From: Mobula hypostoma
Lineage: Eukaryota
Reading direction: 5' to 3'
DNA length: 64,000 nt
Assembly: GCF_963921235.1 (NCBI RefSeq)
Contig: NC_086097.1
Location: 69,256,001 to 69,320,000 of the forward strand
In this document: in pieces, positions 1,225-63,567 of the stretch
Layout: the number at the start of each line of letters is the position of its first letter
Numbering within the stretch: position 1 is the stretch's first letter
Program-made: the position numbers and the translations under genes
The notes under the pieces: generated by a model
What the model was told of the DNA's origin: nothing
The model's input: the letters and a program-made list of their open reading frames with translations, nothing else
The model's database searches: none

Positions 1225-1830
1225 CCATTCATTAAAGAAGCATAGAAGTGCTGGTGGGACATTGGAGCTTGCAAGCACTGAGAGACAGAAAAGGGCACAC
1301 ATTCTGGATGCATTCAGGTTAATTTTCAGGTTCCCCTTTTACTCGGAGAAATTGAGATAAATGAGAACTGGAGTCCCTAATTTAAATCCGGAAGGAAAAG
1401 CTTTGGGTTGTGGAAATATGAGGAAAGATCAGAGTTACAGAAAGTGGAATTTGAGATTATTCAGGGGGAAAATATGATAACATCAATGCACCATAAGTGT
1501 ATTTCAGAGTGTGGGTTTTCAGAGAAGTAGATTCCCGAGTCATAGACTTAAGGAGGAGCGACAGGAAGTGAGTATCTATGTACAAATGAAGCCCCGCTGA
1601 TAAAAATATGACCTTCAATTCAACTATTTGTGCAATTTCCAAACATTGCGTTTTCAGGCTGACAGCCAGAATGATGGCTTGGAACCTCCTGCTTTTATAA
1701 GTACATTTTGTACTGACTCATTTGTTGACCTTAATGTCAGATAAAATTGGCAAATGCACTGTTAAAACTTTCTCCTAAGATTAACTTGCAATCTATAATA
1801 GATTTTTGTTAAAGATGATTCAAAACATAT

Positions 1831-2042
1831 ACACAAGGAATTCTGCAGATGCTGGAAATTCAAGCAACACACATCAAAGTTGCTGGTGAACGCAGCAGAC
1901 CAGGCAGCATCTCTAGGAAGAGGTACAGTCGACGTTTTGGGCCAAGACCCTTCATCAGGACGAAGGGTCTCGGCCTGAAACGTCGACTGTACCTCTTCTT
2001 AGAGATGCTGCCTGGCCTGCTGCGTTCACCAGCAACTTTGAT
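1831..2042. mobile_element. Palindromic mini-element derived from a Penelope-like terminus, carrying a hammerhead motif
   Basis: Inverted arms 1873-1956 and 1959-2042 (about 6 mismatches, 2-nt spacer); flanking direct repeat TGATTCAAAAC(A/C)TAT at 1816-1830 and 2039-2053; sequence matches the ends of the PLE at 37916-40342. Confidence 0.85.
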
Positions 2043-3697
2043 TCAAAACCTATGTTACCTGCAAAATATTTATTTGTTTTTCCAATTAGATATTTCTCCA
2101 CAGACGCTGTCGGATCTGAGTATTTCCTCAGAGGTGCCATTCCAAATGCTATTCCAGAGTGCTGTTTTATTTTACCCCCATGGTGAATTCTTTGGAACTC
2201 TGACAATTGTCAGAAATCTGGCACTTAGTTTGTTCTGTTTTACTCAAAAGTGTTTTCTGTTGTGGATATGGGTTTCCCAGTGGGAGATGCACGAAAGCTA
2301 TAAAAGGGGAAAGGAGGAAAAAATGTTTAAAGGAAACTAATCAATAGGCAAGCAATGAGGTTGAGAAGATCTGTCAGTTAAAATGGAATGAAGCACTAAA
2401 ACAACTGTCCTTTGAAGCCATACCAGTCTCAAACCATTCTGCTATTCTTCAGTTGGATCTTCTGATTCATTTGTTAGAATGTATATTATGTCTTTCAGGG
2501 GCATTAAACACCAGAAGAATCACCCAAACAAACATCCTTGGGAGGTCTTCACTCAGTTTATTTTGTGGCATCTTTTATATTTGAATGACAATCCCATTAC
2601 ACTTACTGAGCAGGTTCTTTCTCATCAGCTCAGAATGCTCCCTTTTCCCCCCCCATCGTCCCATTACAATTCCTACCCCTTACATTATTCCATGCCCAGA
2701 TCTCCTCTTACCACTGCACCCTCAGACAAGCAAAGCTGCTCCTGATAAGTGTTAGCGAAAAGTGCTGCGCTTTTAATCTTCCATATATTCTTCCAGTTCT
2801 ATCAAAGATCGATGTTAGGCATTTAACATTTCCCCTTCCCTTTTCCCAATGGTCCTTGAACCACTTTGGTGTTTAAAAAGTCCGTTGCCAATATGTGACA
2901 ACTTAATCTTGAGTGCCTTGGCATCCACCACAAGTACCTTTGCCTGGCAAAGAAACTTATCGGTCTTAGTTGTGAAAGGTTCAATTGCTGTAGCTGCAAC
3001 AGCTTTTGGAAGGAAAAGAGTTCCTTATTTCCAGAATCTTTTGTATGAAGTGCTTCATGAAATAACCAAGATTTGCCATATTGCCTTGATGAAATGGCCT
3101 TTGCTTGCTCTTAAATTTTAACCTGATAATTCCAATTTGATTTATTTTTTTTTAAATAATTAAAAATGCCTCGCTGCTTGGCATATTTACCTGCCTTTCT
3201 GTTCTTGCTAGAAATTAGAATCTTTGCCTTGCATATCTTGGTGGATAGCATTGATCTACACTGCCACCAAAATGAATATGAAATGAAAAATTCTTCCAGG
3301 ATTTTTTCTTTTTCTTTCCTCTTTGATTCACGTAACTAAAATTTAAAGAATGTGGCTATGGGGTATGTTGTCAGAACACACATTTTAGTGTAACCCAGAT
3401 ATACACAAACCAGAAAAAAGTCATTTTCCTTGATTACATTGTTTTTATTGTCTTTTTGCAATTATCTTAGGTAGAAGGTAACTAACATTGGTCTTGTATA
3501 AATGGTCAGCAATCATAATATTACACTGTGAACTGACATCTGTAGTATGTATATGAACAGTTAGATATAGAAATCATTAAGTGTTTCAGGGAAGGCTGCA
3601 TCTTGCACCTTTCTCCAGCTTAATACTGTCAGTGATGAGAAGTTCAAGTGCTTCCAACTATTATACCTGTAAAATGTACCAGCTTTTATTCCAGGCC

Positions 3698-20300: not shown

Positions 20301-21332
20301 CTCTCTAACCAGCAATGCTACCCTACCTCCTTTTCTTTCATGTCTATCCCTCCTGAATATTGAATATCCCTGAATGTCGAACTCCCATCCTTGGTCACCC
20401 TGGAGCCATGTCTCTGTGATCCCAACTATATCATATTCATTAATAACAATCTGCACTTTTAATTCATCCACCTTGTTACGAATGCTCCTTGCATTGACAC
20501 AAAAAGCCTTCAGACTCACTTTTACAACACTCTTAGCCCTTATACAATTATGTTGAAAAGTGGCCCTTTTTGATTTTTGCCCTGGATTTGCCAGCCTGCC
20601 ACTTTTACTTTTCACCTTACTACTTTTTGCTTCTACCCTCATTTTACACCCCTCTGTCTCTCTGCACTTGTTCCCATCCCCCTGTTGTGAACTAACCTCC
20701 TCTCTCCTAGTCTCTTTAATTTGATTCCCACCCCCCAACCATTCTAGTTTAAAGTCACCTCAGTAGCCCTCGCAAATCTCCCCGCCAGGATATTGGTCCC
20801 CCTAGGTTTCAAGTGTAACCCGTCCTTTTTGTACAGGTCACACCTGCGCCAAAAGAGATCCCAATGATCCAAAAACTTGGATCCCTGCCCCTGCTCCAAT
20901 CCCTCAGCCACGCATTTATCCTCCACCTCATTGCATTCTTACTCTCACTGTCACATGGCACAGGCAGGAATCCCAAGATTACTACCTTTGCGGTCCTTTT
21001 TCTCAACTCCCTTCCTAACTCCCTATATTCTCCTTTCAGGACCTCTTCCCTTTTCCTACTTATGTCATTGGTACCTATATGTATCACAACCTCTGGCTCC
21101 TCACCCTCCCACTTCAGGATATCTTGGACGCAATCAGGAATATCCCAGACCCTGGCACCAGGGAGGCAAACTACCATCCGGGTCTCTGGACTGCGTCCAC
21201 AGAATTGCCTCAGGGACTGCAGTGGTTCAAGAAGGCAGCTCATCACCATCTTCTCAAGGGCAACTAGGGATGGGCAATAAATGCCAGCTTAGCTGGTGAT
21301 GCCCACATCCCATAAATGAATGAATAAAAAAA
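17335..21332 (+). mobile_element. L2-like LINE 3' fragment (17335-17640 plus 21207-21332) split by a CR1 insertion
   Basis: The two parts are colinear with the uninterrupted copy at about 14860-15222; ends AATAAATGCCAGC...ATGAATGAATAAAAAAA. Confidence 0.6.
17641..21208 (-). mobile_element. CR1 LINE: ORF1 esterase (SGNH-like) C-terminus plus ORF2 APE and RT, with frameshifts
   Basis: ORF 20809-21249 (LPGARV...HIGTND) and DGLHL; ORF2 motifs NARSIRNK, ITETWL, MGDFN, GKSDH, YLDFQKA, GVPQG, FVDDTK and RPHLEYC; (TATGTTTC)n tail. Confidence 0.93.
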
Positions 21333-21399
21333 TGAAGAGAAATCAAAGATGTTGAGAGACTGGAAGTGGGAAGCATTTTCCTTTAGAAAACAATATTTT

Positions 21400-24300
21400 G
21401 GAGAGCGAGGGGGAGCAGCCAGATGCCTTGGTTCATACAGTATTGGTACCAATGACATAGGAAGGAAAAGCAATGAGGTCCTGAAAAGAGAATTTAGAGA
21501 GCTAGGTAGGAAGCTGAGAAGCAGGATCTCCCTGGTAGAAACAGGATGATTTGGCAGATAAATGCATGGCTGAGAAGTTGGTGCAGGGGGCAGGGCTTCA
21601 GGTTCTTGGATAATTGGGATCTCTTCTAGGGGAGGTATGACCTGTTCAAAAGTGATGGGTTACACCTGAACCCGAGGGGAACTAATATTCTCATGGGCAG
21701 GTTTGTTAGAGCTGTTGGGAAGGGTTTAAATTAACTTGGCAGTGGGGTGGGAACTGGAGTGAAGGGACTCGGGATAGGACGGATGGTAAAAAAGTAAAGA
21801 TAGTGTGCAGTCAGATTGTCAGGAAGGGCAGGCAGGTAATGGGACTTAGATGCAGCCAACAGGCTGAGTATCAAAACATTAGGGATGCAGAATCAGAAAG
21901 GATAGCAAATACGGTGTTGTATCTAAATGCGTTTAGTATAAGAAATAAGGTGGATAATCTTGTTGCAATATTACAGATTGCCGGGTATGATGTTGTGGCC
22001 CTCACTGAATCATGGTTGAAGGATGGTTGTAGTTGGGTGCTGAATGTCCAAGGTTACACGTTATATTGGAGAGATAGGAAAGAAGGCAGAGGGGGTGGTG
22101 TTGCTCTACTGCCAAAGAAGGCGTCAAATCAGTAGAAAGATGTGACATAGGATTGGAAGATGTTGAATCCTTGTGGGTTGAGTTAAGAAACTGCAAGAGT
22201 AAAAGGACGTTGATGGCAGTTATATACAGGCCTCCCAACAGTGGCTGGGAGGTGGACCACAGGTTACAACAGGAAATAGAAAAGGCGAGTCAAAAGTACA
22301 ATGTGATGGTAGTCATGGGAGATTTTAACATGCAGATCGATTGGGAAAATCAGGTTGGTAATGGATCTCAAGAGAGTGAGTTTGTTGAAGGCCTAAGAGA
22401 TAGCTTTTTAAAGCGGTTTGTCATTGAGCCTACTAGGGGATCAGCTAAACTGGATTGGGTGTTATGTAATGAACCAGAGGCGAATAGGGAGCTTAAGGTA
22501 AAAGAACCCTTAGGAACCAGTGATCGCAATATGATTGTGTTGAACTTGAAATTTGATAGGGAGAAAGTAAAGTCTGACGTAGCAGTATTTCAGTGGAGTA
22601 AGAGAAATTACAGTGGTATGAGAGAGCAGTTGGCCAAAGTAAATTGGAAGGAGCTGCTGGCAGGGATGTCAGAAGAGCAGCAATGGCTGGCATTTCTGGG
22701 AAAAATGAGGAAGATGCAGGATATGTGTATTCCAAAAATGAAGAAATACTCAAATGGTGAAACAGTACAACTGTGGCTGACAAGGGAAGTCAAAGCTATT
22801 GTAAAAGCAAAAGAAAGGGCATACAACAAAGCAAAAATTAGTGAGAAGATAGAGGATTGGGAAGTTTTTAAAAACCTACAGAAAGCAACTAAAAATATTA
22901 GAAAGGAAAAGATGAACAACGAAAGTAAGCTAGCCAATAATATCAAAGTGGATAGTAAAAGTTTTTTCAGGTATGTTAAAAAGAAAAGAGAAATAACACT
23001 GGATATAGGACCGCTAGAAAATGAGGCAGGAAAAATAATAATGGGGGACAAGGAGATGGGTGCTGAACTAAATGAGTATTTTGCATCAGCTTCACTGTGG
23101 AAGACGCTAGCAGTATGCCAGATGTTGTAGTGTGTGAAGGAAGAGAAGTGCGTGCAGTTACTGTTACAAGAGAGAAGGTGCTCAAAAAGCTGAAAGACCT
23201 AAAGGTACATAAGTCACCTGGACCAGATAAACTGCATCCTGGAGTTCTGAAAGAGGTAACGTTAAAGATTATGGTGGCATTAGAAATGATCTTTCAAAAA
23301 TCATTGGAGTCTGGCATGGTGCCAGAGGACTGGAAAATTGCAAATGTTACTCCACTCTTTAAGAAAAGAGGAAGGCAGCAGAAAGGAAATTATAGACAAG
23401 TTAGCCTGACCTCAGTGGTTGGGAAGGTGTTGGAGTCAATTGTTAAGGATGAGGTGATGGAGTATTTAGTGACATAGGACAGGATAGTACAAAGTCAGCA
23501 TGGGTTCCTTCAGGGAAAATCCTGCTTGACAAATCTGTTGGAATTCTTTGAGGAGATTACAAATAGGATAGATAAAGGGGATGCAGTTGATGTATATTTG
23601 GACTTTCAGAAGCTCTTTGACAAGGTGCCACACATGAGGCTGCTTACCAAGTTAAGAGCCCTTAGCATTACAGGAAAGTTACTGACACGGTTAGAGCATT
23701 GGCTGATTGGTAGGAGGCAGTGAGTGGGAATAAAAGAATCCTTTTCTGGTTGGCTGCCAGTGACTAGTGGTGTTCCGCAGGGATTGGTGTTGGGACCACT
23801 TCTTATTATGCTGTATATAAATGATTTAAATGATGGAATCGATGGCTTTGTTGCCAAGTATGCAGATGATATGAAGATTGGTGGAGGGGCAGGTAGTATT
23901 GAGGAAACAGGAAGGCTGCAGAAGTACTTAGACAGATTGGAAGAATGGGCAAGAAAGTGGTAAATAAAATGCAATGCTGTAAAATGCATGGTCATGCACT
24001 TTGGTAGCAGAAATAAACATGTGGACTATTTTATAAACGGGGAGAAAATCCAGGAATCTGAGATGCAGAGGGACTTGTGAATCCTTGTGCAGAACACCCT
24101 GAAGGTTATCTGCAGGTTGAGACAATGGTAAGGAAGGCAAATGCCATGTTAGCATTCGTTTCAAGAGGTCCAGAAGAGCTGGGCTGCTGGTCAGATTGAA
24201 GCTGAAGGGTTTCAGGGTCCCTGTGCCCACCATCCTACTAGCTAATGTGCAAGCCATAGAGAACAAGGTGGATGATCTTAAAGGGAGACTCACCTACTGC

Positions 24301-33769: not shown

Positions 33770-33886
33770 TTACTCTGGCTCCTCATCTTTTATTCCAGTC
33801 TTGCCTCGGCCCGAAATGCCAACTGTACTCTTTTCCACAGATGCTGCCTGGCCTGCTGGGTTCCTCCAGCATTTTGTGTGTGTAAC
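33770..33886 (+). mobile_element. Penelope-like terminal fragment, hammerhead core partly deleted
   Basis: CCAGTC...CTCGGCCCGAAATGCCAACTGTAC...GATGCTGCCTGGCCTGCTG...CCAGCATTTTGTGTG matches 40238-40340. Confidence 0.7.
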
Positions 33887-37675: not shown

Positions 37676-37915
37676 GATGCCAGCAGGCTCAATAAACTGA
37701 TTAGTTATAGGAATCAAATTGGACACACTGGAGGCTGTGGTAGAACAAAGGACCCACCGGTATATCTAGCAATTCTGGACAATGTTTCTCACCCTTTGCA
37801 TGCCACCTTGGCTGAACAGAGGAGCACTTTTAATAATAGACTAAAAGAACTGAGCTACTCCAACGCTCACTCTGTGAGGTAATTCTTAGCTTCGGCCATC
37901 AGGCTCTGTAATGAA

Positions 37916-40342
37916 GAGAAAATCTGCAGATGCTGGAAATCTGAGCAACACACATAAAATACTGAAGGAACACAGCAGGCCAAGCAGCATCTATGAAAAG
38001 GAGTACAGTCAACGTTTCAGGCTGAGACCCTTCAGCAGGACTGGAACAAAAAAGATGGGGAGTAGAGTTAAAAGGTGGGGGAGGGGAGGGAGAAACACAG
38101 GCAACAGGTGAAACCGGGAGGGGGTGTCATGGTCCGGATCGGGGTCCTTTAAATTTACCTTGTTTATGTTACGATCCGGACTGTTGATTCCCTGTTTTCC
38201 CATGTCCCTCGACTTTGGTGATTTGAGGCAATTAACACTCGGCTGAACCGGTAGTTTATAGTCTCCGGCTTTCAGCCGTTCGGTGCGGGAGCATCTGCAA
38301 AGTCACGACGTGCCAATGTCATCTGGCCGGAGCAAGCCTTGTCTCCGCCCGAAGCGAGTGCCAGTAATTCGCCCTTCCTCACCGGAGCAACCCTGTCCAG
38401 TTACCTCGCCGAAGCGAGCCTGCAAAATTTCCTCTTCAAGGTTGGTCCGTCAGTTAACCCACCGGAGAGAATCATGAGCCGCTGTCTACTGTTCCCGGGC
38501 CGAGTCGAGAGCTCGGCACTACCCAGAGGTTCCAAGCACCACGTCCTGGCTCCGGCGGCATCCGAGTACCATGTCAAGTCCTGGCCCTGGCGGCTTCCAG
38601 TTCTGAGCCTAGTCCTGGTCCTGGCGGTCTGTGTTTCCTGTCCTACCCCCTTGTCTGAATCCCTTCTCTGCCCCTCTCAACTCTAGCCCTCGTCTGCAGC
38701 CCCCACCTGCACTTCGGTCTAGTTCCATCGCCGGAGCTAGGTAGGTACTGTCTGGTGTTCATTCATGTTGGTCTTGTCTTGTCTTGTCCTCGCCTCCGTG
38801 GGGTAAGTCTGGCCGTCTTGCCATTGCCCCGCAGGGAGTCATGTCTCGTCTCGTCCTTGCCTCCGTGGGGTAAGTCAGGCCGTCTTGCCGTTGCCCCGCG
38901 GAATGTCATGAGTCCCAGCCCTATGTCTTGAAACCAAGGAGGGGTCCTGGCTCTCTGTTCTGTGTATGTGTCCAAGTTTCCATGTACCTGCTCTTCCGAG
39001 ACCGAGGCTCTGTTTTCCATGTTCCTCCTCTCCTTAGCCCATGTCATGTCCATGCCTGGTTCTGGGGTCCAAGCCCGAGGCAAGACCCAGGTACTGGGTC
39101 CTTGCCCAGTCTTGGGCTCGGAGTCCATACCCTAGCCTCTTCATGTCTCCTCTAGTTCTGGGAGCCGATTCCAAGTCCAAGCCCAGACCCTTGGTCCTGG
39201 CCTAGTCGTAGTCCTAAGTCCTTATCCTGTTCGCTATTCCTGCTTCTGTCTTGCTCTCCTGATATCGTACAATAAACTAAACCTAAGTAACCTCACATGA
39301 TGTGTCTTGCATTTGGGTCCACCCTTGCTCCCAATGTCCTGCCATTGTGACAGGGTGAGGGGTGAAGTGAAGAGCTGAGAAGTTGCTTGGTGAAAGAGAT
39401 ACACGGCTGGAGAAGGGGGAATCTAATAGGAGAGGACAGAAGCCATGGAAAAAGAAAAGGGGGGAGGAGCAGCAGAGGGAGGTGATGGGCAGGCAAGAAG
39501 ATGAGGTGAGAGAGGGATAAGGGGATAGGGAATGGTGAAGGAGAGGAGAGGATGAGCTATTACCAGAAGTTTGAAAAATTGATGTTCATTCCATCAGGTG
39601 GAAGGCTACCCAGACGGAATATAAAGTGTTGTTCCTCCAGCCTGAGTTGGCCTCATCACAACAGATCCCATTCCGATATGTAAAAAGTGGGTTCTCCCAG
39701 TGGCCATCCATTTTAATTACAATTCCTATTCCGATATGTGAAACAACGTAGATTGGAAGACCACTTCACCAAGCACCTACACTCCATCCGCCACAAAAAG
39801 CGGGATTTCCTAGTGGCCACCCACTTTAATTAAACTTCCTATTCCCATTCCAATATGTCTATCCATGGCATTCTCCACTGTCGTTATGAGCCCATACACA
39901 GGCTGGAGGAACAACACCTTATGTTCCATGTAGGTAGCCTCCAACCTGATGGCATGAACATCGATCTCTCAAACTTCCGGTAATACTCCACCACTCATCC
40001 CCTTTTCCCCTCCCTCACCTTATCTCCTTGCCTGCCCATCACCACCCTCCCCACTTCTTTCTTCCATGTCCTTCTGTTCTCTCCTATCAGACTCCCCCTT
40101 CTCCAGTCCTGTATCTCTTTCACCAATCAACTTCCCAGCTCTCTACTTCACCCCTTCCCTTCCTGGTTTCACCAATCACCTTGTGTTTCTCCCTCCTCTC
40201 CCCTTACCTTGTAACTTTACTCGCCATCTTTTTTTTCTCCAGTCCTGCTGAAGGGTCTTGGTCCAAAACATCGACTGTACTCTTTTCTATAGCTGCTGCT
40301 GTCTGGCTTGCTGAGTTCCTCCAGCACCTTGCGTGTGATGCT
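37916..40342. mobile_element. Penelope-like element: two inverted 3' ends, with GIY-YIG endonuclease C-terminus and hammerhead-like motif in each arm
   Basis: 39740-39983 (+) translates to ...HLHSIRHKKRDFLVATHFN...RLEEQHLMFHVGSLQPDGMNIDLSNFR*; an inverted copy spans 37916-38124 plus 39358-39665; degenerate 15-bp TSD at 37901-37915 and 40343-40357. Confidence 0.85.
38125..39352 (+). mobile_element. Solo LTR (TGTCA...TGACA) inserted in the Penelope arm
   Basis: Inverted termini; 5-bp TSD GGGGG/GGGTG; AATAAA at 39271; PLE sequence resumes after it; relative at 59975-61140. Confidence 0.8.
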
Positions 40343-40539
40343 AGGCTCTTCAGTGAATCAACCTGTAGCCAGGGATGTGATCTTGCAATCTTTGACTTGT
40401 AAATCTTATGCAGCCTATTTTTATTCTTTCTTACTTCTCTTTCAATATTTGTATATCTGTGCACTTACAATGCTACTGTGGTACTAATTTCCTGTGTGAT
40501 CAATAAAGTACCTATCTTATTATTATGTATTGCACTGTA

Positions 40540-49951: not shown

Positions 49952-51201
49952 CAGGGGCCCCCAACCTTATTTACACTCTGGACCGGTTTAATATTGACAA
50001 TATTCATGCAGACCGGCCAACGGGGCGGGGGGTGCTGTCGGGGAAGGGTGAGTGTTAATCACAACCAGAATATAGGTGATAAGTCACTTATAAGTGGCTA
50101 ATACACTCACTTTCGTTTCTAAAGGGGTTTATCTAACGAATTTAAGATTAAACACTCAGCACATATTTTCCTCACATGAATATAGTGATAAGTCAATTAT
50201 TACAGTGGTCCCAAACCTCTGGGCTGCGGGCCAATACATTGTCGCAAAGAATGCAGTGGCACAGCGGTAGCCAGGACGCACCCAGCACGTCTTTAAGAAA
50301 AAAGCTGAAATAATCAAGCTAATTGATTAGGTGCCGCCTGGCACGTAAATGCCGGCCCAGATCAGAGGCGACGCAATCGGCAATCGCCTCTGATTGGGCG
50401 GCACCTAATTAATTAGCTTGTTTATTTCAGCTTTTTTTTCTTAAAGATGAGCTGGGTGCGTTCCGGCCACCGCCGCACCGCTGCATTCTTCGCAGCCCGG
50501 AGTTTGGGGACAACTGAATTATAAGTCACTTATAAGTCAATAGCATCATAACATTTTAAGTAACATTTGGATATTAAACACACAGTGCATACTTTCCTTG
50601 TATGAACATATAAAATCATTGCAACACACCAATATCGCTGAATCAGTGGGAGCCCTGGGCTTGTTTTCCTGCAACAAGACGGTCCCATCGAGGGGTGATG
50701 GGAGACAACGATACTCGAAGGGGGTTCCTTGTGTCCAGTCTATTCCACAATTTAGTTTTCATTGCATTCATTGCAGAAAACCCTGCTTCGCAGAGATATG
50801 ATGTTGCAAATGGAAGCAACGTTTTCAGTGCTTTCGTGGCTATCTCAGGATATTCAGCCTTGACTTTGATCCAGAATGCCGGCAGAGATTTTATGTCAAA
50901 CATATTTTTCAGCCCACCGTCATTTGCAAGCTTGAGGAGTTGATTTTTTTTTCCATGCTGACATGGATGTTTCACCGGAAACATTCACAAATAGGTCATG
51001 GACCCATTCCTTTGCACTGATGACCTTGTGTGCATTAAAGTTCAACAGTGGGCGTGACAGGGAATGAGGAAAGGTGCAGCTGACTCACATCGTTTCATAT
51101 CGCCAAATCATATCGTTTACTCGCGGCTCGTGGCCCATGGCCTGGTCACACATGCTTTGCAGCCCGGTTCTGGTCCGCGACCCGGTGGTTGGAGACCGCT
51201 G
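49952..51201 (-). mobile_element. Non-autonomous hAT element (Charlie/Buster type) retaining the transposase C-terminal dimerisation domain
   Basis: TIRs CAGGGGCCCCCAACC / CAGCGGTCTCCAACC; 8-bp TSD ACGTATCC/ACATATCC with central TA; ORF 50643-50984 FWIKVKAEYPEIA...LLPFATSYLCEAGFS. Confidence 0.92.
50203..50516. mobile_element. Fold-back hAT MITE nested in the hAT element
   Basis: TIRs CAGTGGTCCCAAAC / CAGTTGTCCCCAAAC; 8-bp TSD AATTATTA/AATTATAA; long internal inverted repeat. Confidence 0.88.
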
Positions 51202-53440: not shown

Positions 53441-53548
53441 CACAAAATGCTGAACTCAGCAAGTCAGGCAGCATCTATGGAGGGGAATAAACAGTTGACA
53501 TTTCCGGCCGAGACCCTTCATCAGGACTGGAAAGGAAGGGGACAGAGG
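53441..53548 (-). mobile_element. Penelope-like terminal fragment
   Basis: Matches 37950-38050: CAGGCAGCATCTATGG...CAGTTGACATTTCCGGCCGAGACCCTTCATCAGGACTGG. Confidence 0.8.
53492..53529 (-). ncRNA. Minimal type I hammerhead ribozyme motif (PLE-associated), slightly decayed
   Basis: Minus strand reads CAGUC-CUGAUGA-AGGG-UCUCGG-CCG-GAAA-UGUC-AACUG: core boxes intact, stem I 4 of 5 bp. Confidence 0.6.
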
Positions 53549-53905
53549 TTCTTTCCCAGGAGGAAATATTCTCTTCACATCTACTGTCAAGACCCTTCAT
53601 ACATTTCACTGAAGTTCCCTCTTACTCTTCGAAACTCCAGTAGATACAAGTCTACCCAGTCCACCCATTCCTCATCAGGCAAGTTGCCAGGAATTGGGTT
53701 GGTAAATCTAGTTAGAAATGCTTTCAGCACATGCACATATTTCCTTTGATCTAGAGGCCAATAATGTACACAGAACTCCTCGATAATCTTTGATGTGACA
53801 TTTATCTATTTCTTCTGTAAATCTAAGTACAAGACATCCCCATTTTCCTTTTTTTCACTGCACTTAACTCTCCAAGGAACAAAAATAGATCAATCAAATA
53901 TGAAT

Positions 53906-53983
53906 ATGAGGAAATCTGCATACCTCTTCCTAGAGATGCTGACTGGCCTGCTGCGTTCATCAGCAACTTTTATGTGTCTTGCT
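53906..53983. mobile_element. Centre-deleted copy of the palindromic Penelope mini-element
   Basis: Left terminus GAGGAAATCTGCA is joined directly to right-arm TACCTCTTCCTAGAGATGCTG; 16-bp TSD at 53890-53905 and 53984-53999 (2 mismatches). Confidence 0.7.
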
Positions 53984-54111
53984 TCAATCAATTATTAATT
54001 CTCTTTCACAAAAACATCAAAAATAAATTTTGGTTTTATTTATGGCTTGCATAAACCTTGCTAAAAATTGCAGACCATTATACATACACAGTTGGAAAAT
54101 ACGTGGGCAGA

Positions 54112-59499: not shown

Positions 59500-61545
59500 C
59501 TCAAATGGCTTCTACCTTCATCTACTATTTGTAAAACAGTTAATTCTGCTTTACTTGTACATAAACACTCTTCTTCGATCTGTGCTGGTCATTCACTGAT
59601 TCAATTTAAAATTGTACATCGTTACCATTTGACGAAGGAAAGATTGTCTAAAATATTCCCTAACATTGATAGTTATTGTGATAGATATAAAACTAAGACA
59701 GCTACACTGACACACATGTTCTGGTCTTGTTCTATACTGGAACAGTTCTGGCAGTCAGTTTTTTTGACAATTTCTAAAGCACTTAAAATTAATTTACAAC
59801 CTAACAAATTAACTGTGCTTTTTGGAATAATTCCTCAAAATATCTGTGGTATCTCTTTGTCTGACCAACATGTTATTGCATTTGTTACATTGATAGCTAG
59901 GAGGGCCATTTTGTTGAAGTGGCAGGATACATCGGCTCCTACTTTGTCACAATGGTTCTCTCAAGTGATGCCAATGTCATAAGGCAGTGGCTGGGAACGG
60001 ACCCAAGCACAAGACACAGACACTGAAGTACTAGGGACAGGACAAGGACATGGACACGAAAACCGGGAACCCGGAACAGGACTGGACACGACAGCTAGGA
60101 GCCCGGGCTTGGACTCCGAGCCAGAGACTGGACAAGGACCCAGTACCTGGGTCTTGGCTCTGGCTCAGACCCCAGAACTAGGCAAGGACAAGGCTTGGCT
60201 GACAGGCAGGATGAGGCTGGAGTCTTCAGGCTTGAGGCTAGGCAGGAGGCTGGAGTCTTCAGGCTAGAGGCTAGAGATGAGGCAAGGCTTGGCAGGAGGC
60301 TTGAGACTTGGGGTGAGGCTTGGAAGGAGGCTGGAGACTTGAGACTTGAGGCAAGGCTTGGCAGGAGGCTTGAGACTTGAGGCGAGGCTTGGCAGGAGGC
60401 TGGAGGCAGGAGACTTGAGGCGAGGCAAGGCTGGAGACTGGAGGCAGGAGGAAGGAGGGCAGGACGTGGTACTCCTGGGCAGGGGGCGGCTCTCCACCCA
60501 ATGGAGGCAAGGGACAGGAAGGGACAGAACCAACCACAGGTAATGGCAAGTCGGCCTGGCTTACCCGACGGAGACAAGGGACAGGAAGGGATAGAACCAA
60601 CAGCTAGTAACGGCAAGATGGCCTGGCTTACCCGACGGAGGCAAGGGACAGGAAAGGAGCTAGGTACGGGGTGGCTCCCGGACAAGACAGCAAGACAAGG
60701 CAAGGCTTCAGGCGATGCAAGGCAAGACAGAACTTCAGGCGAGGTGAGAGCTACTGGCAAGACAAGGCAGGGCTTCAGGAATTGCAAGGCAAAATGAGAA
60801 CTTCAGGCGAGGCGAGAGTTACCAACAAAACAAAGCAAGGCTACAGACAATGCAAGGCAAAACGAGAACGTCAGGCGAGGCGAGAGTTACCGGCAAAACA
60901 AGGCAAAGCTTCAGGCAAGGAAACAGAAGGCAGAGGAAGGCATACAAGGAGTAAGGACAAGAACAATCCAGCAGCCACACACTGGTCTGAAGGTATTTAT
61001 GCAGCCAGCCCCAACGAGCATCAGCTGCCTCAATTAGAGCTCAACAAGAACAGAAACAGGGTAGACAGGAAAACCTGGAGCAAGGGTCGATGGACTGGAC
61101 CGTGAACCGGAATACGGACTTCACGGACCGGACCATGACAGCCAAGTTCTAGGTTGGAGAAAATTAGAAGTCAAGCCCTTCAATCTATGTTTGATTTTGA
61201 GAAAAGATGGGGTTCATTTGCTCGTTATTATTATTTGAGTTAATTGATAGATTTCCTCCACGATCTAATTGTAAATTTTTGGTACATTTTTTTTCTTGCT
61301 GGCAGTTTGACGTTTATCTTTTGAAGCTTTTTGTATGACGCATGGCTCTGGGGTTGAACACCTAATGGGTTTTTTCCCTCACTTTTTTCTTGCTTAGTAG
61401 GGGTTTTTTCCTCTTTTTCTTAAATCACCAAAATTTTTTCAATCTTTATAATAATATTATTTTTCTTGAGACATTGTACAAGTTGCTTACTTTGATGTTC
61501 CCCGTAAATTGTTGGAAATAATAATAAAGAGATTTGAAAAGAAAC
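59500..61545 (+). mobile_element. L1-clade LINE 3' end (cysteine-rich C-terminus), interrupted by a solo LTR
   Basis: ORF 59440-59982: LIQFKIVHR...YCDR...LTHMFWSC...FW; coding remnant resumes after 61145 (LEKIR...FEKRWGSF); AATAAA and A-rich end. Confidence 0.85.
59975..61140 (-). mobile_element. Solo LTR (TGTCA...TGACA) with internal tandem arrays
   Basis: Perfect 5-bp TSD GCCAA at 59970-59974 and 61141-61145; minus strand starts TGTCATGGTCCGG, as at 38125. Confidence 0.88.
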
Positions 61546-62268: not shown

Positions 62269-62466
62269 GTGGGCATTCACAGTAGAATAAAGAAATACAA
62301 TGGAATCAATTAAAAACTGCAAAGAAAGTCTGACAAACAATGTCCAAAAAAAAGACAAACTGTGCAAGTACAAAAATCCGAATAATAATAATAATAAACA
62401 AGTAAATAAATAATACTGAGAACATCAGTTGAAGAGCCTTTGAAAGTGAGTCAATAGTTTGTGGAA

Positions 62467-62684
62467 ACAACAGGAATTCTGCAGATGCTGGAAATTCAAG
62501 CAACATACATCAAAGTTGCTGGTGAACGCAGCAGGCCAGGCAGCATCTATAGGAAGAGGCGCAGTCGACGTTTCAGGCCGAGACCCTTCGTCAGACGAAG
62601 GGTCTCGGCCTGAAACGTCGACTGCGCCTCTTCCTATAGATGCTGCCTGGCCTGCTGCGTTCACCAGCAACTTTGATGTATGTT
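62467..62684. mobile_element. Palindromic Penelope-derived mini-element with hammerhead motif (young copy)
   Basis: Perfect 91-bp arms 62502-62592 and 62594-62684 with a 1-nt spacer; perfect 16-bp TSD TCAATAGTTTGTGGAA at 62451-62466 and 62685-62700. Confidence 0.92.
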
Positions 62685-63567
62685 TCAATAGTTTGTGGAA
62701 TCAGTTCAGTGTTGAGATACGTGAAGTTAAACATGTTGGCTTATGAGCCAGACACTTGAAGGATAATAACTGTTCCTGAACCTAGTGGTGTCGGACTTGA
62801 GGCTTCAGTACCTCTTTCCTGATGGGAGCAGCATGAAGAGAGCATGGCCTGGACAGTGGGGCCCTTGATGATGGATGCTGCTTTCTTGTGGCAGAGCTCC
62901 TTGTAGATGTACTCAATGGTAGAGAAGACTTTTCCTGTGATTGACAGGGAAGTACTCACCAGTTTTCGTAGCCTTTTTCTGTTCTTAGGCATCGGTGTTT
63001 CTGTACCAAGCCATGACACAACCAGTCAAGATACTCTCTACTGTTCACCTATAGAAGTTTGTCAAAGTTTGAGATGACATGCCAACTCTGCCCAAACTTC
63101 TAAGAATGTTGAGACCCTGCCATGCCTTCTTTACAATGGCACTTATGAGCTGGTTCCAGGACAGATCCTCAGAAATGATAACGCCAAGGCATTTAAAGTC
63201 ACTGACCTGCTCCACCTCCAATTCTCTAATGAGGACTGGCTCATGGACCCTCAGCTTCTTCCTCCTGTAGTCAATAATCAGCTCTTTGGTTTTGCTGACA
63301 TTGATTGGCTAGTGGTGATAACAAAGAGGGTCAATGAGGGTAGAGCCTTGATTAGTGTACATGGATTTTGGAAAGTTCAAAGAAAGTAAAAGCTGGTGGG
63401 ATCTAAGAGAAAGTGGAAAGATGTATTAACAATTTCCCTAGTGACAGAAAGTTTAGTGTAACAATCAGTCACTGACGGACTGCGTGCAGGCAGAGATGCT
63501 GTGCAGAGAGAAGTCAGGATTAGCCCCTTGTTTTTGAATGATGTAGATTTAAATGCACAGGCCACAA

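Follow-up and report, generated by a model that had tools for sequence, protein, structure and literature searches.

A palindromic insertion in Mobula hypostoma, very probably of Penelope-like terminal repeats, and how its two arms may have come to face each other

What kind of sequence is the near-perfect palindrome at 1816–2053 of a stretch of Mobula hypostoma contig NC_086097.1, and how did its two arms come to face each other? Coordinates are those of the window, the whole 64,000-nucleotide stretch analysed (69,256,001–69,320,000 of the contig). A sequence-only reading had described 84-bp arms with about six mostly CpG-type transitions, a 2-nt spacer and a separate 15-bp target-site duplication (TSD), all of which were found as stated, and had attributed the palindrome to reverse transcription that stalls and primes itself on a micro-hairpin, with a pre-formed palindromic master as the alternative. 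The inverted arms occupy 1873–1956 and 1959–2042; each is 84 nt long, and they are 93% complementary around the 2-nt spacer AG, the centre reading CCCTTCATC-AG-GACGAAGGG. At the junction, (A/G)TC-AG-GAC (1954–1961), the GAC at 1959–1961 fits both arms and constitutes 3 nt of inverted microhomology, the native upstream letters being taken from the consensus of loose contig ends. All six mismatches between the arms (1899, 1916, 1938, 1939, 1944 and 1954) are transitions. CpG-type positions hold four mismatches in 12 vs two in 72 elsewhere (Fisher p=0.003), where 1938 and 1939 count as CpG decay only if an ancestral CG is assumed, as retained there by the copy at 33.8 kb. The copy had also been called older than the family's other palindrome, at 62.5 kb, and rightly so, with six mismatches in 84 nt here against none in 91 nt there.

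The palindrome is a single insertion into a duplicated target of 11–15 bp. The 15-bp left TSD (1816–1830) and the right TSD (2039–2053), both read on the plus strand, differ by a single mismatch at 2050, and the pair was equalled by 2 of 1500 random pairings; its true length lies between 11 and 15 bp because the first four letters fit the element end as well. An empty site is preserved in organism C, where one contig joins 1500–1827 directly to 2051–2400 with more than 300 letters on each side and lacks 223 nt, the exact offset between the TSD copies. In organism B the site is filled, and all that its contigs show is the outer junction on each side, reached with 27 and ~30 letters of the element, slightly below the 31-letter minimum used for joints. 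Flank divergence amounts to 17 of 746 positions (2.3%) from organism B and 39 of 678 (5.8%) from organism C. The non-CpG divergence between the arms (2/72) falls within this age bracket, which fits arms that would have been identical at insertion.

These observations bear on an origin after insertion, whether by DNA-repair fold-back, by arm-to-arm conversion or as a MITE-like DNA element. Conversion would, like the models discussed below, pair the arms by locus; a single TSD nevertheless surrounds both arms, the empty site lacks the whole of the palindrome and the age of the insertion explains the arm divergence without conversion, and we regard this origin as very improbable. A MITE or other DNA transposon was rejected, as symmetric termini and a fixed short TSD are absent and a one-sided tail and TSDs of ~10–16 bp are found instead. 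Two other inverted structures occur in the window: an unrelated, ~250-nt MITE-like element that has an inner hairpin besides its long inverted arms (50244–50493), and inverted arms of 73–80% identity between opposed LINE-like ORF remnants (20706–21772), which probably represent two old copies turned towards each other.

The inserted sequence is very probably the terminal repeat of a Penelope-like element (PLE). It consists of two head-to-head, hammerhead-bearing terminal repeats of one sequence variant, one tailed and the other tail-less. The long arm (1873–1956, sense on the minus strand) bears at 1831–1872, on the same strand, a one-sided 42-nt PLE tail with a few nucleotides absent from the short arm, an addition to what the sequence-only reading described; its outer end would be the tail-end priming site, and 391 and 240 contigs of run X1 have loose ends before 1831 and 1836, respectively. 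The short arm (1959–2042, sense on the plus strand) is tail-less, lacks the CU of the hammerhead core and ends in a GU-rich loop. In the 62.5-kb copy the tail, likewise on one side only, measures 35 nt, the difference arising because the short arm here stops 7 nt sooner. TSD length also varies, from 11–15 bp here, as the empty site confirms, to 16 bp at 62.5 kb. An inverted 5'-truncated copy adjoins a direct terminal repeat, as in PLE insertions with inverted pLTRs. The insertion is followed, some 40 nt downstream, by a decayed piece (2090–2127) that by eye resembles an older PLE terminal repeat.

The long arm, read on the minus strand, carries a minimal type I hammerhead-like motif (1926–1961), which comprises helix I (GUC/GAC), CUGAUGA, a 4-bp helix II preceded by one unpaired A, and the palindromic ACGU, and is followed by ~90 nt and then the tail. 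This motif was matched, through the family consensus and its fold, to the PLE hammerhead described in PMC4209133. Minimal PLE hammerheads are there characterized by CUGANGA, an unpaired nucleotide before helix II, GAAA and a palindromic minimal helix III; the present motif departs from them in its 4-bp helix II and in its decay, since GAAA reads AAAA on the long arm and CU is absent from the short one, so that no intact core is left. The hammerhead of the family is a predicted ribozyme, and the motif of this copy is, judged by its letters, broken. In Schistosoma, minimal hammerhead motifs are described on opposite strands, 100–700 bp apart. Rfam returned no match at the gathering score in the window, and its five sub-threshold matches on 1800–2070 included no hammerhead. 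A His-rich, 82-aa remnant at 39735–39980 is a candidate PLE endonuclease end by its motif (GIY-YIG being expected before the terminal repeat); Pfam assigned no family to this remnant, and the family's reverse transcriptase (RT) was not seen adjoining any copy within the window.

The architecture is already known for PLEs. Published insertions with inverted pLTRs (PMC3846280, PMC8557442, PMC2377424) share head-to-head repeats, a shorter inverted copy, a one-sided tail, one TSD and a palindrome at the junction, the tail measuring 30–40 bp and lying on one side (PMC3846280, PMC8557442). The present insertion differs in containing only terminal repeats (~210 nt, no ORF), in the favouring of two-sided priming for its origin and in the overlap at its junctions, 1–3 nt here vs 15 bp in Pen2a_Av (PMC3846280, PMC8557442, PMC2377424). 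Short, non-coding, PLE-derived and hammerhead-bearing, it also resembles the non-LTR retrozymes (bioRxiv 10.64898/2026.07.22.740005); that class was rejected, as retrozymes are described there as needing direct tandem units with a ribozyme in each, and a single inverted pair is present here. The copy is very probably a dead, severely 5'-truncated PLE end of ~210 nt, made in one event, consisting of terminal repeats only and devoid of ORFs.

Seven family pieces were examined in the window, and four are head-to-head. Besides the copy at 1816–2053, these comprise the young palindrome at 62451–62700, with perfect 91-nt arms around the centre GTC-A-GAC, and an insertion at 53890–53999, in which a 12-nt tail stub (53909–53920) and a 63-nt sense arm that does not overlap it meet head-to-head within a 16-bp TSD bearing two mismatches. 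None of 1500 random pairings equalled that TSD, and the stub's score was reached by 15 of 20000 random 15-mers against the tail and by 100 of 20000 against the whole arm. The fourth is an older PLE insertion at 37901–40357, which turns near 39664, in a coding remnant and ~570 nt upstream of the hammerhead, has a long spacer and is split by an LTR-like insert. Its head-to-head part spans ~1.2 kb with a complex junction, and a sense fragment of ~70 nt (39665–39735) is duplicated; the insert itself (38125–39352) is a 1.2-kb solo-LTR-like sequence with the ends TGTCA...TGACA, related pieces of which lie at 60110–60646. TSDs are weak at 33.8 kb and 37.9–40.3 kb (p ~0.03 each), and none is convincing at 44.8 or 53.4 kb, so that the 'simple', non-inverted status of the latter two copies is weak. 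One tailed and one tail-less end occur in all four head-to-head insertions of the window. The tail-less ends are confined to ~12 columns of one GU-rich loop, and because the copies at 33.8 and 53.4 kb, neither of them inverted, end there too, such an end can be a priming site.

Were the arms formed anew at each locus, or were they inherited from one palindromic master? Comparison of the four arms of the two palindromes showed three columns (1913, 1924 and 1925) that group by locus and none that group by side, the remaining six variable columns being private to a single arm of the 1816–2053 copy. The two palindromes also differ in their centres (GTC-AG-GAC vs GTC-A-GAC) and in the ends and length of their arms. 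The check suggested beforehand, that arms pairing by locus would point to de novo formation and arms clustering by side to a master, came out three to nil for the former, on four arms. This pairing calls for at least two independent origins, and we hold with good confidence that the palindrome formed de novo rather than from one pre-formed master.

The alternative, in which a pre-formed palindromic master, or a few of them, would be transcribed and mobilized in trans to give daughters such as the 1816–2053 copy, draws on the likeness of the two palindromes in size and turn, on the great abundance of the family (93,689 contigs in run X1), in which small palindromic subfamilies could go unseen, and on one diverged X1 contig that crosses the centre ungapped, if only by 21 letters, fewer than the 31-letter rule demands. 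Against it stand the grouping of arm columns, the unlike centres and the hairpin of −164 kcal/mol that a master RNA would form, together with the many X1 contigs that leave the reference at 1959, 1960 and 1961 (at least 255, 209 and 684, respectively) and read on unrearranged. A single master is disfavoured and, taken together, this explanation is improbable, small palindromic subfamilies remaining conceivable. The arm tree itself cannot tell self-priming from priming on both sides, because either one pairs the arms by locus.

Under snap-back self-priming, a single cDNA or antisense RNA would terminate at GTCAGGAC, fold there over a 3-bp stem and be copied back, the product finally being joined to the far target end through a 4-nt match. 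Self-priming of PLEs was already proposed in 2013, as an inference from the palindromes present where inverted copies meet (Arkhipova et al. 2013, PMC3846280); elsewhere, small-hairpin fold-backs with 2-bp homology are reported at L1-made breaks (10.1101/2024.12.14.628481), and a microhomology fold-back followed by end-joining is reported in yeast (PMC11724301). Several observations agree with it. The junction at 1816–2053 has 3 nt of native inverted homology, and the unrearranged subfamily does hold GTC-AG-GAC, as had been proposed, the consensus of contigs leaving before 1959 ending in AGTTAGTCCT (runs X1, X6 and X14). The unrearranged example originally offered, at 53514–53530, reads CCCTTCATCAGGACTGG as claimed, but belongs to a subfamily only 76–78% identical. 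Of the four head-to-head copies, two turn within 1 nt of the same site; in each of these the tailed strand still carries the AG or A of the centre, the polarity expected from snap-back. Locus-specific variants common to both arms are expected from one template, and the hairpin of the GU-rich loop could halt a snap-back polymerase as well.

The specific route by micro-hairpin fared less well. The self-priming hairpin with a 3-bp stem and 2-nt loop was not predicted, its 2-bp form has +1.5 kcal/mol, and it appeared in no minimum-free-energy structure; as the software bars 2-nt loops by rule, this verdict marks a limit of the model rather than an experiment. A stall at the hammerhead core is likewise not the natural reading, since RT moving 3'→5' on the RNA would already have crossed the entire ribozyme on reaching this point. 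Folding back 'at the same site' holds to within 1 nt for the turn but not for the sequence, as the other palindrome reads GTC-A-GAC (62590–62596), and this inconstant centre tells against a fixed micro-hairpin route. At 62.5 kb, native inverted homology is 1 nt, and snap-back would require either a loop of 1 nt or a subsequent deletion, in arms that are perfect elsewhere. Nor is the motif rare, for at least 15 inverted spots, each of no less than 3 bp and with spacers of 0–5, are listed on the 131-nt strand (one palindrome counted twice). Two of the four head-to-head copies turn at other places, and the 53.9-kb copy lies beyond snap-back because a first cDNA cannot supply template that it does not contain. 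Finally, snap-back by itself leaves unexplained why the short arms stop where non-inverted copies stop. Weighing these points, we consider it possible but rather doubtful.

The best model, which we favour with modest confidence, is two-sided priming, with the two cDNAs joined by 1–3 nt of microhomology. The PLE enzyme would cut both target strands, ~15 nt apart. One target 3' end would prime cDNA at the tail-end start site and the other at a second start site, in the GU-rich loop ~35–40 nt further in, where primer and template match here over 4 nt. Both cDNAs would then extend towards each other and be joined where pairing of their ends is possible. That place would be the quasi-palindrome GTC-AG-GAC, which marks the hammerhead's 5' edge and offers a microhomology of 3 nt here and 1 nt in the 62.5-kb copy. 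Arms so made would be identical at birth and would later have decayed, chiefly at CpG. GTCAGGAC would be one joining point among several rather than an obligatory route.

The best sign of two priming events within the window is the 53.9-kb insertion, whose non-overlapping layout is that of L1 twin priming. In that process, as Ostertag and Kazazian are said to have described it in 2001 (cited in PMC10191854 and 10.1101/2024.12.14.628481), both target ends are primed and inverted pieces are joined within one TSD; twin-primed L1 pieces usually do not overlap. The 1816–2053 copy departs from L1 in that its arms overlap almost fully and its second priming site is fixed. Among public contigs, 13 of the 15 joints listed, from 420 in total, are asymmetric antisense-to-sense arm joins, each present in 1–5 contigs per run. 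A close biochemical parallel is the Poseidon PLE of the lizard Anolis, studied in vitro (Frangieh et al. 2024, PMC11167929), whose protein cleaves the two target strands and extends each of them. Its hammerhead lies ~85–125 nt upstream of two stem-loop RT starts, a spacing like that seen here, and the stretch between these starts is the tail; the one tailed and one tail-less end of all four head-to-head copies match such a pair of starts. Head-to-head joins are not explained in the available text of that study.

Several points weigh against two-sided priming. Arms overlapping by 84–91 nt of template oblige one to assume two RNAs, or a tandem RNA, of one source; two of the four head-to-head copies turn within 1 nt of each other with the polarity of snap-back; the text available of PMC11167929 reports a start site alike on both strands and no head-to-head products; the supporting stub is only 12 nt long; and the arm test comprises only four arms. 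Microhomology alone does not choose the site, because simple annealing of two cDNA ends would be stronger at the tail palindrome (−10 kcal/mol) or at GTCGAC (−8.6 kcal/mol) than at GTCAGGAC (−4.1 kcal/mol). A literature search that took in few subscription papers and neither Repbase nor supplements found no proposal of twin priming for PLE inverted repeats and, within the same scope, no description of such elasmobranch palindromes.

Is the turning site nonetheless special? Two of the four head-to-head copies in the window turn at GTC-A(G)-GAC, which is suggestive of a hotspot. Six of the 13 head-to-head joints listed enter at 1959 and four more at 1962–1967 (15 of 420 shown, with sides of 20–31 letters); this excess does not prove a hotspot because the reference arm begins at 1959 and pools joints there. 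A turn at the ribozyme's cleavage site (GTC/GAC, 1984–1985) was rejected, that site lying 25 nt away. Contigs of X1 and X14 also return from 1989/1990 to 1959 with 5–8 letters between, a possible direct tandem of ~36–39-nt hammerhead units, which is the dimer layout required by minimal hammerheads.

Speculatively, the turn at helix I could mark a 5' end of the RNA or a repeat boundary no less plausibly than an RT pause. Just before TCCTG/TCTTG, four of five read-through copies carry a splice-acceptor-like pyrimidine tract and CCAG ahead of the hammerhead core (33782–33808, 38034–38062, 40222–40252 and 53519–53545), and the intron of Drosophila virilis Penelope ends at helix I (PMC4209133). The 5' edge of the hammerhead might be a programmed, splice-acceptor- or initiator-like template end, at which cDNAs on both strands stop and join at GTC-AG-GAC. 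We put this forward tentatively and think it unlikely; it stays speculation because motifs of this kind occur often (2.5 and 12 per kb) and because helix I constrains the same letters.

Beyond the window, pattern scans for the element gave no match in viral or genome contigs, and a scan of metagenomes with the subfamily pattern gave none; 80 metagenome loci obtained with a looser pattern, none matching over more than 33 nt, were dismissed as chance. Run X5, which may be RNA, was not counted as evidence that the family is expressed.

The copy at 1816–2053 is a clean, dated example of this architecture and no new kind of element. The origin of PLE inverted ends is unsettled: the 2013 work inferred self-priming, and the 2024 work demonstrated extension of both strands in vitro. 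Counting junctions in a family this abundant, whose insertions are short and datable and whose orthologous sites can be empty, could decide the question. Should the hammerhead edge be a programmed template end, which we think unlikely, the head-to-head copies would document in vivo the priming on two strands and at two start sites that was observed in vitro for the lizard PLE, and the family would routinely plant near-perfect palindromes of ~210 nt throughout the genome, with RNA hairpins of −164 to −199 kcal/mol, which would make them a self-made source of double-stranded RNA.
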